Source: Pocillopora damicornis
Lineage: Eukaryota
Length of the DNA: 64,000 bases
Direction of reading: 5' to 3'
NCBI RefSeq assembly: GCF_003704095.1
Contig: NW_020843829.1
Coordinates: forward strand, 372,001 to 436,000
Positions within the stretch are counted from its first letter, which is position 1, and each line of letters begins with the position of its first letter. The position numbers are program-made. This document shows, piece by piece, positions 24,001 to 30,000 of this stretch.

Positions 24001-27000
24001 TAAAAAAAATATATAAAAACACACTCAAGTCTGACCTGTTGTTTTAAGTTTCAAATGACTAGTAGATTTATACTAAAATTAGAAGGCTAATTCCTCTTAA
24101 ATGCTATGCATGATAGAAATCTCCAGCTCACAATCTTGTTGTTAAATAGATTTAAATTTTACTAATGTGATAGTTTTTCCTTTTAGGCGTTGTTATTATA
24201 TGCCAATGAGTCTCCTTCACTAATCTTGTCTGTTTAATGAGTGGAAGGCTTTGTTGGTCAAATAGCTAGATCAGTGTCAGTTGCACCTCTCTTTCCTTTT
24301 CTTAGCAAAGAAACATAAACAAACTGAGTGCCTCATCCTAAACACATTACCTTTATTATACCAATTGAGCCAAAAAGATCTTTGATGTCTGCTTCTGTAA
24401 CCGTAGAGGAAAGATTTGAAATGAAAACCTGATCTGTTTCATACTCTTTCCCTGCAAAATCAAAACCAAAAACAAACTCATTTCCATTTGGGGTGATCTA
24501 AACCCAATCACTGTACAGAATGAGAACACCCAATCAATAGGTGCACAATAATCTTGGCAATCACATAGGTAAAAGGTCTCACCTGGATCTTGCTGTCCAC
24601 CTCCAGAAGAGTTACCTGGATTAAAAAAAGGACAAAAAGAACCACTTAGTCATGACAAGAACACTGACAATTGAGATGCTATTTATTATAGCAAATATGA
24701 TTATGTACCATGCCCTGTTCCCTCAAAATCTGTGCCAGTGAAATTGAGGACCCAATACAATCTACCACAATAATGCAACAGCATATTAGAATAACTTCCC
24801 TCAATACCAATCAAACATTCAACAGCACAGTAGTGGCATAAGGCTGCAAAGGACAAATATCAGACAATGTCTCCATTTTGTTTGGACAAAATAGAAATGT
24901 AATCCACCATTTTATTACATTTCCCCTTTTTTCTAAATCATGTTTTTGTCACCAGAAAATACCCTATCTGTCAAACCTGTTGCCACATATCCATTTTATT
25001 CTTTGTTTGGTAAACAATTCTCCCAAAATTATATACAGCTGCAGTTCAGATTTTGTTAATCATGTGCCAATTTTAGTCAGACATTGACCCACAGTCATTT
25101 ACAGCTTTATGTGATTGCCACTTGTTGCGATTGATAAAAACAGAAGGACAAAGTTCCAAGAACAGATCCTCAAGAAGGTTTACAGCAAAGAGACCACTGG
25201 GTAACAAGTGTCATTACTGTAAACAGGGATTCAAATTTCTTTCTGATCAGAAATACCCTCTGCCCTCTGGATAACTGGATTAAGGAAATGCAATTTATGC
25301 AGTCCACAAATTGAAAACCAATAAAAAAAAAAACAACAACAACACAACAACAGAGGCTCAGCTTTGATTTTATAGTTTTGATCATACCAAAGACATATCA
25401 TGCCATTTTTTGTTGGACCTCTAAAGCACAGAACTACTTGCAGTGAAAACCTTAAGAGCGCTATGAGAAGCCCTAAGATTCAGCAAATCCCAGAGAACAG
25501 GTGCTCTTCCCTACCAGTAAGACTTTTCATAATTTTTGACATTTAAGTACCCTGGATGGATCAAAATTCACCACTGGAGGAAGGAAGAGAAGTCAAACTT
25601 CCTTATGACTCACTTAACAGACTTTCTTGATTCTCAAAACATTATCTCAAAAATGTTGTTCAACATTTCAAAAATATTCAACAATACCTGGTTCATGACA
25701 AAAACTGTTGAAAAGTCTTAGAGGTGGTAATTCTCATATGTTTCTTTATGTGGGACATAAAAGTCCCACATAAAATCCCCTTGAGCAATGTTCAACAACA
25801 GTTGCATAAATCCTTAATTACAACATCCTATAAGAGTTTTACATGTAAGGCAAACTAAAAATACTATGATCAGACACTTCTCAGAAGTAAACAACAAAAA
25901 TTAATTGTTAAGATTTGTTACAATCCTTGACAACAGTTTTGAAATACAGGGCAATACAACCAAGCAAATGTTTACTACCACACACAAAGTACACAAGAAC
26001 TCCGGAGCTCAGTGATCAAGACGCAAGCTAATATCAGAGGTCATTTCAGAAACCCATAATTTTGACCAGTGGCCCTAGAAGAACTTTTTGTAAGCTTCTA
26101 ATTTGAATATACCTGAATGACAGAAATTTTAAGATCATACCAAAACCATTATGTTCCGATTCAAAATTGGAATATTACCCAATAGCTTATACAGTAAATG
26201 ATGCCCACACGGATGAAATTCAGACATGAGCAATAACCAAGCAAGTCGAGGAATGTTTAACACTTTCTTATACCAAACAAGATTAAACTCAGTCTTTTGA
26301 CCAATGATAACACCAGCTTTGTTAGCCGACCGGCTGGCGGAGTGATTGAATTACACCACAGACAGCATGTTATAAAACTGCAGGACAGAGCCTGTCTGCA
26401 TCATGTGACTTACCATAACCCATATTACTATTGTATCCACCCGGTCGGCTACCTCCTCTGCCACCGCTGTGTATAGTACCAGTAAATGAATTCAATGATC
26501 AAGAGTAGGAGGACACTGCCTTGTACCACAGTACCTCAATCAACCAGTTTAGTAGCAAACACCAATACTTATTATTAATTTAACCCTTTGACTCCCATGA
26601 GTGACCCAAACAGAAATTCTCCTTACAGTTTCAATAAAATATCAACCAGACAAGCGATGAGAGGAAAGAAAAATATCCATTAGGGGATTATTAGTTGATC
26701 CAATACCAAATTATCCAAACTACCATCATGAGAATTGTATAGCACACAGTAAGGAGAATTACTAATTAGATCTTGGGAGTAGAAGGGATATCTTTTAAAT
26801 GCATTTTAAACTTAGTCAAGAATAACAGTAGCAGGTTGCAAGTTTTGAAGTTTACTGCAATTCTTACATTGTTACAGGAGGAGTGCATTCCAGGAACCAT
26901 GTAATTTTCTATCTCTATGCCATTGAAAAAGTATATAGTAAAACTCCCCTATAACTGTTCAGTTTGGAATTTCAAAGAGTAACTTTACCATTCTAAAATT

Positions 27001-30000
27001 CTCTTCAAATGTGTTAAAAAAATTTTGAAAATAACTTGGTAATCTTGCCACATGTGCAAAGCCAAATTGCCCAGTACATCGACAGCTGCTTCTCTGATCA
27101 CAATAAAAAAATCTATATTTGAGTTAAGAGTGCCCTTTTGAGCAGCTCTAACCTTTCAAATAGATTGCCAAGATATGAAAAATGAAGACCACGACTTTGT
27201 TATGAAACAGGTAAGCAACCTGGTTGATAAGCACGATTCAACATGGCTGCATGCAGAGTAGAAATTTTAACACATTTGAAGACAATTTTCCATCATTCAG
27301 GGTTACTGTTTGAAATCTCCTAACTCAGTCAGAATCATTATTTCATATGATATACTTTTCCAAGGTAGAGAGAAATTTTACATTGTCCCCCAAGCATATT
27401 TCACTGGTAGGCTTTAAAAGTACTCCTTGACCTTTCCCCTAAATAGGATTTTATTCCATCCCCCAATTTGACTCCAAGTATTCTCACAAGCTGTGCTTAA
27501 ACTTTACTGCCACCCACTGAAGATAAAGCTATACTAGCCACTTTTCCTGCATAAATTTTCTTCTGATCAACTATCCTAAGCGCTTTAGATGGAATATACA
27601 GGGTGTGTGGAGTCTGTTCCTTATATGAATGTTAAATAAATTAATAACCGATTTCTTTTAATAATCTTTTACTTAGATCAAGCCAAGTCTTTTCCCAAGA
27701 CCCCTCATCCAAAATTTATCTGTAACTTTTACTTCAAGATTCATCTCTTAATCAAGGACACCACTGCCCAACGTAGGACTTTGAGTAAACCATAAGGGAA
27801 CTTGTGATGTACATGTAACCCCGAAGAAAGCTGTTCATGCACTCAAAACATTTTGAGAGCCCTGGTCACTTTTGAAATTGTCTTTCCAGCTGGAAGTTCC
27901 TCTGTTTATGTGGAACAAATATCTGAGATACCAAGACACTAGAAATATCTTGTGTACCACTTTTTTTGGCATACCCCTCATTGTTTTATTTTTATTTTTT
28001 TCAAAGGCCTATCTTTACCAGTACATTAAAGATAGAGTTAAATCCCTATAGTATTTATAAAATATTACCCTGACAACAAATCCTCTCATTAAATCTTTCA
28101 AACTTGACATTTTTTGTCATCAGCTCTAGGAACAATTTCTACCCTGGTGGGTAAATCCAAGCTCAACCCACTCTTTTCTGAACCCTGCTGTGGTTTTGGG
28201 TGTGGACAACAATTCTATAATGCCTGAACGATTTCATATGCCCAGAATAGTTCCATTAGGATGAGCCATGGATATACCAGTGCCTAAAACCCTCCGCAAT
28301 GAGGTAAAACATTCATCACCCCATTGTGTGAATATCTTTTACACGGTGCACTCTAAGTATGACCACTGTTCACAAGCACAGGAATAGTTCCCTAAAACCC
28401 AAGTTTAATAAAAAGTGCAACAAGGAAATAGCACATCAGCCCTAACTTAGCAATGATTTCAACATTCCACACAAGACAGGATACAAGACAGGATAAACCA
28501 ATTTGCACAATAGAGGAAAATCATCAAATTTCTGGAAAGATTGACAAAAAAAATATTAACTACATTGACCCAAATTAATGTTCCAATTTTTTACAGGTTT
28601 TAGAGAATCATTTTTATTTCACTCTTGAAAATACATTTTGTAAAAATCAGTAATTGTGAAGTGATATGCAAAATTTCACTGTACATTTAAAGGCACCCTG
28701 TTTTAAGGCATGTTGAAATCAACTCCAAGTCTTTCCCATAGGATTTTATCAGAAAGCAAAATAGTGAACATGGCCACACACAAAATAAGTTTGCTTTATC
28801 AACTGAGTTGATCATGTAAATTTACCACCATAAAGCCTTAGCCCTTCACCCCTTACCCATTTGCTCTAACAAATGGATAAACCTTTAAACATCAGCTTTA
28901 GAAACTCTTAATGGTGGCCAAACTAGTTAATGAACTTAGTTGATAAAGCAAAATTTATCTTGAACAACCCCCAAGGACGCAGCACCACAGCTGTTTTAGA
29001 AACTCTCCCCTACAACCCACACACAGCTTACAAGTGCACAATACACACACAGCTCAGATACTAGAAAGATAATCCTATCACTAGCAACAAATACATGTCT
29101 AGGGGTAAAATGTTACAGTTTGCTACAAAACATTTTGCTCCAAAGAGCAGAGGCACCTGTGATTGTAATCATCACAATTGAAAGTCAGTAACCAGTTACA
29201 TGATGTAAATGTATTCAACACCCAAATCCAATTCTTTACCTTCCCTAATGGTTAAACTATACATTGAGAGGGAATTGTTCTTGTTCAAAAACCTGAACCA
29301 CCTGGTTGAATTATTGAGACTACTAAACCTGGGTACAAATTCAACAACAAATTTGAAGTAACAGAAGTTATTGAAATTTAACATTTATCCATATCCCATA
29401 TCGCGGAGAAAATGCTCTGATTAATTTTTAATTGCTATAACAAATTCCTGAGAAAGTTTTGAGCCAGAACAACAATTAAAAGAATGCACACCAGTTTCCC
29501 CCCAACCTTTAACATGCACAGTTCTAAGGAAAAGGTACAATCTTTTTAAATCTAACCCAAAAATCAAGAGGACACATCTCCATAGTCACTGGTAAAGTTT
29601 AGGTGATAGAATGAAAATCAGAACCTACCCTCTTCCTCCTCCATAGCCACCTCCTCCACCTCCTCCTCCTCCTCCTTGTCCATAGGAAGAGCCCTGCTGT
29701 CCATATCCACCACTACTGCGTCCACCATCACCTTGATACCCACCACCTTGGTATCCACCTCCACTGCTCTGACTGCTGCCATAACCACCCTGACCACCAG
29801 ATTGATACCCTCCAGTCTGTTGATATCCCTGTGGTTGCTGGTAGCTTGATCCTCCACTCGCTTGTGAGTAGCCACCACTCTGAGGTTGCTGTTCGTACCC
29901 CTGGTACTGTGTTGAAGATGCTTGCTGGTAGCCACCTGAGCTGCTGTCTGTCTGGTAGCCTGTGTAACCTGTTGAGGCACTCTGGTATCCAGTTGCTGCA

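Follow-up and report, generated by a model that had tools for sequence, protein, structure and literature searches.

The exon of mammalian FUS that concerns us here is exon 7, which in the human gene is presumably 35 nt long and followed by an exon 8 of 33 nt. Skipping of exon 7 shifts the reading frame and brings a stop into exon 8, and in the account given by Zhou 2013 (PMC3814325) this skipping is promoted by the FUS protein. The first-pass annotation of the coral locus described below had described exon 7 as a short frame-shifting exon, and the frameshift agrees with that published account. A study of mouse and human tissue observed retention of introns 6 and 7 and no exon 7 skipping (Humphrey 2020, PMC7337901), so even the mammalian mechanism is disputed. 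The acceptor of human FUS intron 7 is described as weak (Science Advances 2025, PMC12285722), and a review reports that overexpression of FUS in flies lowers endogenous cabeza (PMC7831090).

Related behaviour has been reported for other members and products of the FET family. In C. elegans, the 38-nt exon 5 of fust-1 is skipped under FUST-1a according to reporter evidence, and isoform b of the protein is translated in the +1 frame from an AUG further downstream (Cao 2021, bioRxiv 10.1101/2021.03.22.436400). The same preprint sets the worm case apart from FUS exon 7 and makes no claim of exon homology. The coding sequence of human FUS also holds altFUS, a 170-codon open reading frame in the +1 frame that is reported as expressed (Brunet 2020, PMC7788448). 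A full-text literature search found no paper on conservation of FET exon 7 in cnidarians. We examine here a FET gene of the coral Pocillopora damicornis in a window of 64,000 nt (contig NW_020843829.1), with positions counted from the first letter of the window.

Structure and family identity of the coral FET gene

The gene was read directly from the sequence, and its intron phases were checked. The parts needed first are these:

20933..31482, minus strand: coding part of the FET (cabeza/FUS-like) gene, 13 exons and 12 introns
29629..30108, minus strand: exon 3, 480 nt, a low-complexity (S/Y/G/Q-rich) and G-rich stretch whose final GG leaves it in phase 2
26414..26466, minus strand: exon 4, the proposed frame-switch cassette, 53 nt, phase 2 to 1, with 17 whole codons reading GGRGGSRPGGYNSNMGY
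24583..24615, minus strand: exon 5, 33 nt, phase 1 to 1, in which 24614-24612 becomes a TAA stop upon exon 4 skipping
24351..24451, minus strand: exon 6, 101 nt, the first RRM exon, ending ...GSIGIIK in phase 0

Translation runs from an ATG at 31482-31480 to a TGA at 20935-20933, and all 12 introns are of the GT..AG type. Exons were searched singly against Pfam, each on its own and not as a joined gene model; RRM_1 was matched in exon 6 alone (E 5e-6, profile positions 1-26) and Zn_ribbon_RanBP in exon 11 alone (E 6.8e-7), and the remaining six of the eight exons scanned gave no match. RGG runs are present in exons 9, 10 and 12. The last exon ends ...QGMRQERRDRPY before the TGA, a PY-type nuclear localisation signal (C-terminus ...RQERRDRPY), and the same PY ending is found in named homologues. 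The best named relative is a protein of Desmophyllum pertusum, and exons 2-9 are colinear with Desmophyllum P0001. Exon 3 translates into 159 S/Y/G/Q-rich residues without any F, L, I, M or V, and is 64% identical to a Desmophyllum RRM protein across 80% of its length. With a low-complexity N-terminus, an RRM, a RanBP2 zinc finger, RGG repeats and a PY signal, the gene is a member of the FET family.

A proposed frame-switching exon between the RGG region and the RRM

Exon 4 has a length of 3n+2 and lies after the G-rich/RGG region and ahead of the RRM; it is preceded by a phase-2 intron and followed by a phase-1 intron. Its boundaries and phases, as given by the first-pass annotation, were confirmed by re-reading the minus strand and by arithmetic, as were the 33-nt exon that follows and the RRM exon ending GIIK. 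When exon 4 is removed, the junction 29629|24615 reads GG+G = GGG with TAA (24614-24612) as the next codon, exactly as had been proposed, which places a premature stop in the following exon, nine exon junctions upstream of the last one.

This arrangement resembles mammalian FUS exon 7, likewise a short frame-shifting exon between a G-rich/RGG region and the RRM whose removal leads to a stop in the next exon. In both genes the exon sits in a large intron-exon-intron block (~3 kb in human as described, 5013 nt in coral) and the upstream exon has a sub-optimal donor. Unlike its human counterpart, the coral exon is 53 nt long, its stop lies directly at the junction, and its downstream acceptor is strong where the human one is described as weak. 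Protein binding, sensitivity to nonsense-mediated decay, retention and intron conservation are documented in the mammalian literature cited. As in C. elegans fust-1 as described, a 3n+2 exon lies upstream of the RRM and its skipping puts a +1 AUG into the normal frame, so that RRM, zinc finger and nuclear localisation signal would be kept behind a different N-terminus, as in FUST-1 isoform b. The worm skipping and its dependence on FUST-1a come from reporters, whereas skipping in the coral is inferred.

Exon 4 might instead be constitutive, its resemblance being inherited gene structure and its flanking introns long for neutral reasons. Ancestral intron positions are widely kept in cnidarians, and any 3n+2 exon gives a stop if it is removed on paper. 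Against this, exon 4 is better conserved than its low-complexity neighbours: its peptide is identical to residues 199-215 of Desmophyllum P0001 at 16 of 17 positions, compared with 121 of 175 aligned columns (~69%) for exon 3 and 7 of 9 residues for exon 5. Further evidence on this alternative comes from the introns, the predicted pairing and the exon-lacking records below, and on balance we regard it as distinctly improbable.

The two long introns

26467..29628, minus strand: intron 3, 3162 nt, the longest in the gene, donor AGG|GTAGGT
24616..26413, minus strand: intron 4, 1798 nt, the second longest, donor ATG|GTAAGT, acceptor strong (86% pyrimidine)
26576..26790, strand not assigned: SINE/MITE-like dispersed repeat inside intron 3 (repeat families D2, D3 and D5)

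The first-pass annotation had singled out the introns flanking exon 4 as the two longest of the gene, and this is correct: the other ten measure 738, 559, 131, 551, 116, 646, 457, 359, 122 and 585 nt, and the range then stated, 116-738 nt, is exact. Under random placement the two longest of 12 introns would be exactly this pair with a chance of 1/66 (1/C(12,2)), a coincidence that is not negligible over a whole-genome scan and that leaves room for a constitutive exon; the flanking pair is suggestive but not decisive. The densities of GGUG, GUGGU and GGU in introns 3 and 4 lie within the range of the other introns, although FET binding motifs are weakly defined. This lack of motif enrichment also fits introns that are long for neutral reasons, as does the dispersed repeat in intron 3, the only in-window repeat detected in either long intron. 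However, recognisable repeats account for only ~7% of intron 3, intron 4 has none, and introns 2 and 8, which are much shorter, carry similar elements. An Rfam search of intron 3 gave no match at E<=1, and its open reading frames had no Pfam match reaching any curated cut-off.

Control could also work differently, by introns 3 and 4 being retained or detained in the nucleus, a mode proposed for introns 6 and 7 of mammalian FUS (Humphrey 2020, PMC7337901; Science Advances 2025, PMC12285722). That these two introns are the longest of the gene fits such a mode. Kept in the mRNA, intron 3 gives GGG TAG at once (stop at codon 2) and intron 4 a stop at codon 15, and P0004, a related genomic open reading frame, likewise terminates just past this end of exon 3. 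Both splice sites of intron 3, the donor (GTAGGT) and the acceptor, are sub-optimal. The donor, with a 7/9 match, is nevertheless no worse than most others of the gene, and the acceptor is the weak site, its 59% pyrimidine being the lowest among the 12 introns. The pairing of a weak upstream donor with a weak downstream acceptor that marks detained introns was not found here; the pyrimidine tract of the intron 4 acceptor is the best in the gene, the reverse of the weak human intron 7 acceptor as described (PMC12285722). No cnidarian record examined begins or reads inside introns 3 or 4. Retention as the working mode thus appears unlikely to us.

A predicted helix over the exon 4 acceptor

26430..26470, minus strand: exon-side arm, covering the 3' splice-site AG and the first 37 nt of exon 4, with a perfect 11-nt core at 26451-26441
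26299..26343, minus strand: intron-side arm in intron 4, about +71 to +115, with a perfect 11-nt core at 26333-26323

These arms form a duplex that is predicted, from one sequence, at -40.8 kcal/mol, the best among 972 intron windows (mean -17.2, sd 4.8); the best exon-intron pairings of the other ten internal exons range from -18.6 to -33.2 kcal/mol. At the core, 11 nt form a perfect inverted repeat (GC fraction 0.73), and none of 100 simulated windows gave so GC-rich a repeat. Folded as a 181-nt segment, the region has a z of -2.07, and 4 of 200 shuffles fold equally well. A helix pairing the weak 3' splice site of exon 4 with the downstream intron is a new prediction of this work. With its length of 53 nt, the weakest pyrimidine tract in the gene and a 3' splice site predicted to pair with intron 4, exon 4 looks built for skipping. 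The weakest acceptor and by far the strongest predicted exon-intron pairing also speak against a constitutive exon.

Exon-lacking records in other animals

The architecture predicted for the skipped coral mRNA recurs in cabeza X2 of Nematostella, in the X2 isoforms of Dendronephthya and Clytia, in X2 and X5 of Branchiostoma, in teleost TAF15 X2 and in further isoforms. These isoform X proteins, which are models of the NCBI pipeline and do not in themselves give transcript abundance or speak for control by the FET protein, have a +1-frame N-terminus, lack the short-exon peptide and enter the normal frame ~10-25 residues before the RRM. The N-termini of Nematostella X2, Dendronephthya X2 and Clytia X2 are free of Tyr and rich in V/I/L/M/F, and the normal frame resumes just before the RRM; all cnidarian exon-lacking records share the layout of FUST-1 isoform b. 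For Nematostella and Dendronephthya this class was assigned by composition and junction position, and their +1-frame N-termini do not resemble the +1 translation of the window in sequence (E 40-65). Among 124 named animal proteins, 58 belong to the +1-frame class and 38 are canonical; in 13 the N-terminus is too short, in 4 the motif is missing, and a further 11 are unclear. Cnidaria contribute three to the +1-frame class and one to the canonical class. None of the six named EWS proteins examined fell into the +1-frame class.

A coral-like transcript contig (P0002, 1360 nt), whose protein is an open reading frame on an assembled contig and likewise gives no abundance, is colinear with exons 5-12 and lacks exon 4 at the expected place. 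In its alignment with the canonical P0001 the first aligned residues are 'GN', two residues into the split-codon boundary of exons 4 and 5, and its first residues resemble the +1 reading of the exon 3 end (score 37, reached by 52 of 2000 shuffles). Together with the three named cnidarians, this contig weighs against a constitutive exon 4.

In vertebrates the clearest comparison comes from Brachyhypopomus, where TAF15 X1 and X2 are identical at 243 of 243 positions from GPRDYG on and unrelated upstream. X2 lacks GGDRGGYKNYG and ends its own N-terminal part ...HLVW, and therefore fits a 35-nt exon between phase-2 and phase-1 introns. The deduced teleost exon and coral exon 4 have the same phases, and both are 3n+2. 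The likeness in position to a vertebrate FET exon, which the first-pass annotation had put forward for human FUS, is supported here through teleost TAF15. The annotation had also suggested that the feedback may be older than the cnidarian-bilaterian split; exon-lacking records in cnidarians and bilaterians carry this for alternative skipping. Based on the records from Nematostella, Dendronephthya, Clytia and the coral-like contig, skipping of the cassette exon very probably predates that split.

The second AUG and the +1 frame

30726..30728, minus strand: second AUG of the coding exons, which opens exon 2 and is read in the +1 frame, 16 nt past the main AUG

From this AUG, a frame of 20 + 159 codons crosses exons 2 and 3 without a stop and leaves exon 3 in phase 1, so that it meets exon 5 in the normal frame if exon 4 is skipped. 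As for FUST-1 isoform b, it takes the omission of the 3n+2 exon to bring the +1 AUG into the normal frame. The immediate premature stop claimed earlier for the skipped mRNA therefore holds for the main frame and is incomplete as a description, since the +1 frame stays long and open. The exon-lacking records enter the normal frame before the RRM, and skipping need therefore not mean only nonsense-mediated decay.

Skipping could then serve mainly as an isoform switch, in which the skipped mRNA is translated from the second AUG, giving a +1-frame N-terminus ahead of the usual RRM, zinc finger, RGG and nuclear localisation signal, and feedback consists in an active protein being replaced by an inactive or differently active one. 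The position of that AUG as the first triplet of exon 2 and its open frame ending in phase 1 would allow this, there is a worm precedent with reporter evidence (Cao 2021, bioRxiv 10.1101/2021.03.22.436400), annotation pipelines chose the +1 frame for the 58 proteins counted above, and for altFUS, which is read from this region in the +1 frame, expression in human has been reported (Brunet 2020, PMC7788448). The coral frame resembles altFUS in lying open over the low-complexity domain, with 20 + 159 codons in exons 2-3 compared with 170 in human. Unlike the coral frame, altFUS as described is a small protein in its own right, translated from the normal mRNA and reportedly conserved in mammals; the coral frame joins the RRM frame upon cassette skipping. 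Composition alone explains its openness, since F, L, I, M and V are all missing from the exon 3 translation, and an open +1 frame therefore offers no evidence of selection. Furthermore, ORF callers choose the longest frame, translated or not, the main AUG, with A at -3 and G at +4, is the more upstream one, and the +1-frame N-termini differ between cnidarian orders. A switch of isoforms as the main function seems rather unlikely, though not far-fetched.

A proposed cnidarian counterpart of the FET cassette

We propose that exon 4 is the cnidarian counterpart of the FET frame-switch cassette represented by FUS exon 7 and fust-1 exon 5, with feedback by FET protein, and we give this reading a probability of roughly 60%. 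It builds on the observed anatomy of the exon, on its match in phase and position to the vertebrate and worm equivalents, and on the cnidarian exon-lacking records. Homology with the FUS exon 7 cassette is partly supported, by indirect evidence from sequence. With exon 4 included, translation from the main AUG would yield the low-complexity domain, RGG, RRM, RanBP2 zinc finger, RGG and PY signal. With exon 4 skipped, the main frame would stop at GGG TAA, no normal protein would be made from it and the mRNA should be a target of nonsense-mediated decay, while the +1 frame of the second AUG would open into the normal RRM-to-C-terminus frame. We infer that exon 4 is skipped in P. damicornis and that FET protein itself promotes the skipping, which would close a negative feedback loop.

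A broader form of this idea is tentative, and we lean against it. Skipping of a 3n+2 exon would then be an animal-wide frame switch, found in cnidarians, molluscs, arthropods, amphioxus and vertebrate FUS/TAF15, that couples FET dosage control to an mRNA fusing the altFUS frame with RRM, zinc finger and nuclear localisation signal; in the coral it would be set by a helix that hides the splice site. FUS exon 7 skipping, FUST-1 isoform b and altFUS might on that account be one ancestral device.

Control of FUS dosage is a central matter in FUS-linked ALS, and two mechanisms are argued for it, exon 7 skipping and retention of introns 6 and 7. Cnidarians and vertebrates diverged more than 600 million years ago. 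If the cassette works in cnidarians, the feedback would be older than that date, and simple models such as Nematostella could be used to dissect it; exon 7 skipping in human, isoform b in the worm and altFUS, now treated separately, would become linked.

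Gene anatomy and family identity

The short exon under study, exon 4, belongs to a FET gene, a relative of FUS, EWS, TAF15 and cabeza, whose model comes from reading the sequence, with lengths and phases checked.

31482-31480 to 20935-20933, minus strand: FET gene of 13 exons, from ATG to TGA
Exon 3, minus strand: 480 nt, S/Y/G/Q-rich then G-rich, 3' end GG, phase 2
26466-26414, minus strand: exon 4, 53 nt, phase 2 to 1
24615-24583, minus strand: exon 5, 33 nt
Exon 6, minus strand: 101 nt, start of the RRM, terminating in ...GSIGIIK, phase 0

All 12 introns are of the GT..AG type. 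Introns 3 and 4 measure 3162 and 1798 nt against 116–738 nt for the remaining ten, and random placement of intron lengths would put the two longest of the 12 on either side of exon 4 with a probability of 1 in 66. Joining exon 3 directly to exon 5 produces GGG TAA. The exon 4 anatomy described in the first-pass annotation is real throughout: a 53-nt exon of phase 2 to 1, the two longest introns on either side of it, a 33-nt exon and then one ending in GIIK, and an immediate premature stop upon skipping.

The spliced model was searched one exon at a time rather than as a joined sequence. Exon 6 alone matched Pfam RRM_1 (E 5e-6), exon 11 alone matched the RanBP2 zinc ribbon (E 6.8e-7), and the C-terminus reads ...RQERRDRPY. 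Six of the eight exons scanned against Pfam gave no match, being too short or too simple. Exon 6 by itself, too short a query, gave 32 generic RRM matches against PDB sequences (best E 0.0031), none of them FUS-specific. The 159-residue translation of exon 3, the sole informative exon of sufficient length, recovered a single homologue, P0001, a hypothetical RRM protein from the stony coral Desmophyllum pertusum (E 7.9e-37, 64% identity). On this basis the window is cnidarian, in all likelihood hexacoral, and not human.

Genomic surroundings

A neighbouring gene is arranged head to head with the FET gene, upstream of it and on the other strand, and short dispersed repeats resembling SINEs or MITEs are found across the window.

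34010-35282, plus strand: RNF34/RFFL-type gene (SAP domain E 2.2e-13; rififylin-like domain E 1.4e-14)
3253-3336, 7472-7742, 16806-17145, 20294-20501, 23282-23447, 26576-26790, 30359-30555, 34793-34898, 39606-39822, 48892-49699, 54470-54666, 57940-58157, both orientations over the full set: SINE/MITE-like repeats
60438-60625, 19402-19577, 7355-7480: tandem duplications in two copies each, with units of 94, 86 (spaced 90) and 63 nt, 93–94% alike
5610-5709, 7192-7304, 41210-41219: stretches of N totalling 223 bases, none in or near the FET gene

The dispersed repeats form at least two families (61–88% alike), with copies in FET introns 2, 3 and 8 and just past the 3' end of the gene. Between 20001 and 30000 the transcribed strand carries a strong excess of G over C throughout the FET gene, in introns as well as exons (GC skew of the plus strand -0.13 to -0.22). 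G (17–24%) exceeds C (10–19%) in 11 of the 12 introns, the exception being intron 11 (G 15.6%, C 18.9%).

Records lacking the short exon

Named animal matches from two homologue searches (n = 124, unnamed matches excluded) were sorted by the composition of the region preceding the RRM. Normal-class proteins had at least 7% Tyr and at most 12% V/I/L/M/F. The +1-frame class, shifted one base from the main FET frame, was defined by at most 1.1% Tyr, at least 20% V/I/L/M/F, a return to the normal frame 10–25 residues before the RRM, and absence of the short-exon peptide.

Table. Classes of named animal FET proteins
Normal class: 38/124
+1-frame class: 58/124
N-terminus shorter than 80 residues: 13/124
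Anchor motif absent: 4/124
Unclear: 11/124

Three of the four cnidarian entries fell in the +1-frame class (Nematostella cabeza X2, Dendronephthya X2 and Clytia X2, predicted isoforms that are silent on transcript abundance and control), and the fourth, from Desmophyllum, was normal. The class also took in 6/8 mollusc and 16/35 arthropod proteins, both amphioxus isoforms, and 29/49 TAF15, 2/18 FUS and 0/6 EWS entries from vertebrates, shares that depend on what the searches returned and are not frequencies.

The nearest case is P0002, a 260-residue protein encoded by a coral-like transcript contig of 1360 nt, which is colinear with exons 5 to 12 (28/33 identities in exon 6). Its alignment to the normal Desmophyllum protein begins with 'GN', which lies two residues into the split-codon boundary of exons 4 and 5, and exon 4 is absent from its expected place. 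P0002 starts with MDSKAL...EEEEEG, similar to what the last part of exon 3 in the window gives in the +1 frame, MDSRAL...EEEE; this signal is weak, with a local alignment score of 37 reached by 52 of 2000 shuffles, and BLASTP of the +1 exon 3 translation against P0002 yielded no match (E 29). From its sequence, P0002 looks like the spliced transcript of a near relative without exon 4. Counting against the skipping reading, BLASTP of both exon 3 translations, +1 and normal frame, against Nematostella X2 and Dendronephthya X2 found nothing significant; this low-complexity region is too diverged. Skipping of exon 4 is likely to be ancient. A full-text literature search found no publication on conservation of the FET exon-7 type in cnidarians.

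A second AUG and an open shifted frame

The first-pass annotation had missed a second AUG and the frame that it opens.

30728-30726, minus strand: second AUG, formed by the opening triplet of exon 2; +1 frame, 16 nt downstream of the main AUG

The +1 frame contains no stop in the 20 codons of exon 2 or the 159 codons of exon 3. Because it exits exon 3 in phase 1, skipping of exon 4 brings it into register with the normal exon 5 frame. An identical arrangement, with a downstream +1 AUG joining the normal frame upon skipping, is described for isoform b of worm FUST-1 (Cao 2021, bioRxiv 10.1101/2021.03.22.436400), and human altFUS, as presented by Brunet 2020 (PMC7788448), uses the same shifted frame as the coral +1 ORF. 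Nothing can be concluded from the open +1 frame alone. Every stop codon begins with T, which means that the +1 frame can stop only where a main-frame codon has T in its middle position. With F, L, I, M and V all missing from the exon 3 translation, the main frame lacks such codons there, and this keeps the +1 frame open. Over exons 2–3 (29630-30728, minus strand) this frame is altFUS-like in covering the low-complexity exons. With exon 4 included, it apparently continues to a stop inside exon 6, its tail lying within ORF 24356..24649.

Splice sites, predicted pairing and constraint at exon 4

Among the 12 acceptors, that of intron 3 has the tract poorest in pyrimidines (59%). Intron 4 at 26343-26299 is predicted to pair with the stretch 26470-26430, which comprises the 3' splice site and the initial 37 nt of exon 4. 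The duplex energy of -40.8 kcal/mol is the most favourable among 972 windows over both introns (mean -17.2, sd 4.8); the best values at the other ten internal exons range from -18.6 to -33.2 kcal/mol. The core of this helix is a perfect 11-nt inverted repeat (GC 0.73), and GC-rich repeats of this kind arose in none of 100 simulated windows and occupy two loci in the real one. The second locus pairs 16071-16089 with 16147-16165 (~19 nt, loop ~60 nt). A 181-nt fold around exon 4 has an energy of -60.8 kcal/mol (z -2.07), equalled by 4 of 200 shuffles. The weak acceptor and the pairing between exon 4 and intron 4 would together make exon 4 skippable.

The exon 4 peptide shares 16/17 residues with Desmophyllum; the corresponding figures are 121/175 (exon 3), 7/9 (exon 5) and 28/33 (exon 6). 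Given the small size of exon 4, these values hint at added constraint on it without proving it.

The long flanking introns

Known RNAs were ruled out as an explanation for the long introns, snoRNAs among them: no Rfam match reached the gathering score anywhere in the window, and none reached E<=1 in 24500-29700. A transposon protein or nested gene was likewise ruled out, as no Pfam match to any of 13 intronic ORFs attained a curated cut-off, and two matches of chance level (E 0.042 and 0.055) fell far below theirs. The in-window repeat content of introns 3 and 4 amounts to one copy (26576-26790), and neither intron is enriched for GGUG, GUGGU, GGU or UG.

Retention of intron 3 leads directly to GGG TAG, and retention of intron 4 to a stop at codon 15. 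In P0004, a genomic ORF from a related coral, the upstream intron is read through into the exon 3 equivalent, and the ORF meets its stop immediately behind ...GYGGGGRG; this relative therefore apparently shares the in-frame stop that the window has at the donor of exon 3 (GGG TAG). Three fish entries, P0184 (Danio TAF15 X6), P0170 (Engraulis FUS-like) and P0094 (Neogobius TAF15), start with a peptide ...FFLC[SR] abutting GGDRGGYKN[YF]G. This peptide, alike across three fish orders, appears to be translated from the last part of the intron that precedes the short exon, consistent with transcripts that retain that intron or start within it.

Probable counterparts in vertebrates and worm

Human FUS exon 7 is short and frameshifting, and the next exon measures 33 nt. 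According to Zhou 2013 (PMC3814325), an RNA without exon 7 is frameshifted, meets a stop within exon 8 and is sensitive to NMD, and the block of intron 6, exon 7 and intron 7 (~3 kb) is conserved in 38 vertebrates. Independent support comes from fish proteins: the X1 and X2 isoforms of Brachyhypopomus (knifefish) TAF15 are identical from GPRDYG to the end (243/243) and unrelated upstream, where X1 reads ...GPPGMGGGDRGGYKNYG and X2 ...EEEEAHLVW. X2 corresponds to the upstream exon read one base later, minus 1 + 11x3 + 1 = 35 nt. The difference therefore implies an exon of 3n+2 length whose upstream intron is in phase 2 and whose downstream intron is in phase 1, the same flanking phases as those of coral exon 4. 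In a cross-species comparison, goby TAF15 P0094 lacks the next 11 residues present in another goby entry, P0065, a gap that fits a second exon of 33 nt. The equivalent exon of C. elegans fust-1, reported as 38 nt and skipped under FUST-1 isoform a (Cao 2021, bioRxiv 10.1101/2021.03.22.436400), shares the 3n+2 length class of coral exon 4.

Coral exon 4 is thus very probably a cnidarian member of a FET frame-switch cassette. In other animals, a review (PMC7831090) notes that fly cabeza is lowered by FUS overexpression, and Humphrey 2020 (PMC7337901) describes mouse and human samples in which intron retention was found and exon 7 skipping was not. We infer that skipping of exon 4 may serve self-regulation, transcript decay or production of an alternative protein, or may act jointly with intron retention.
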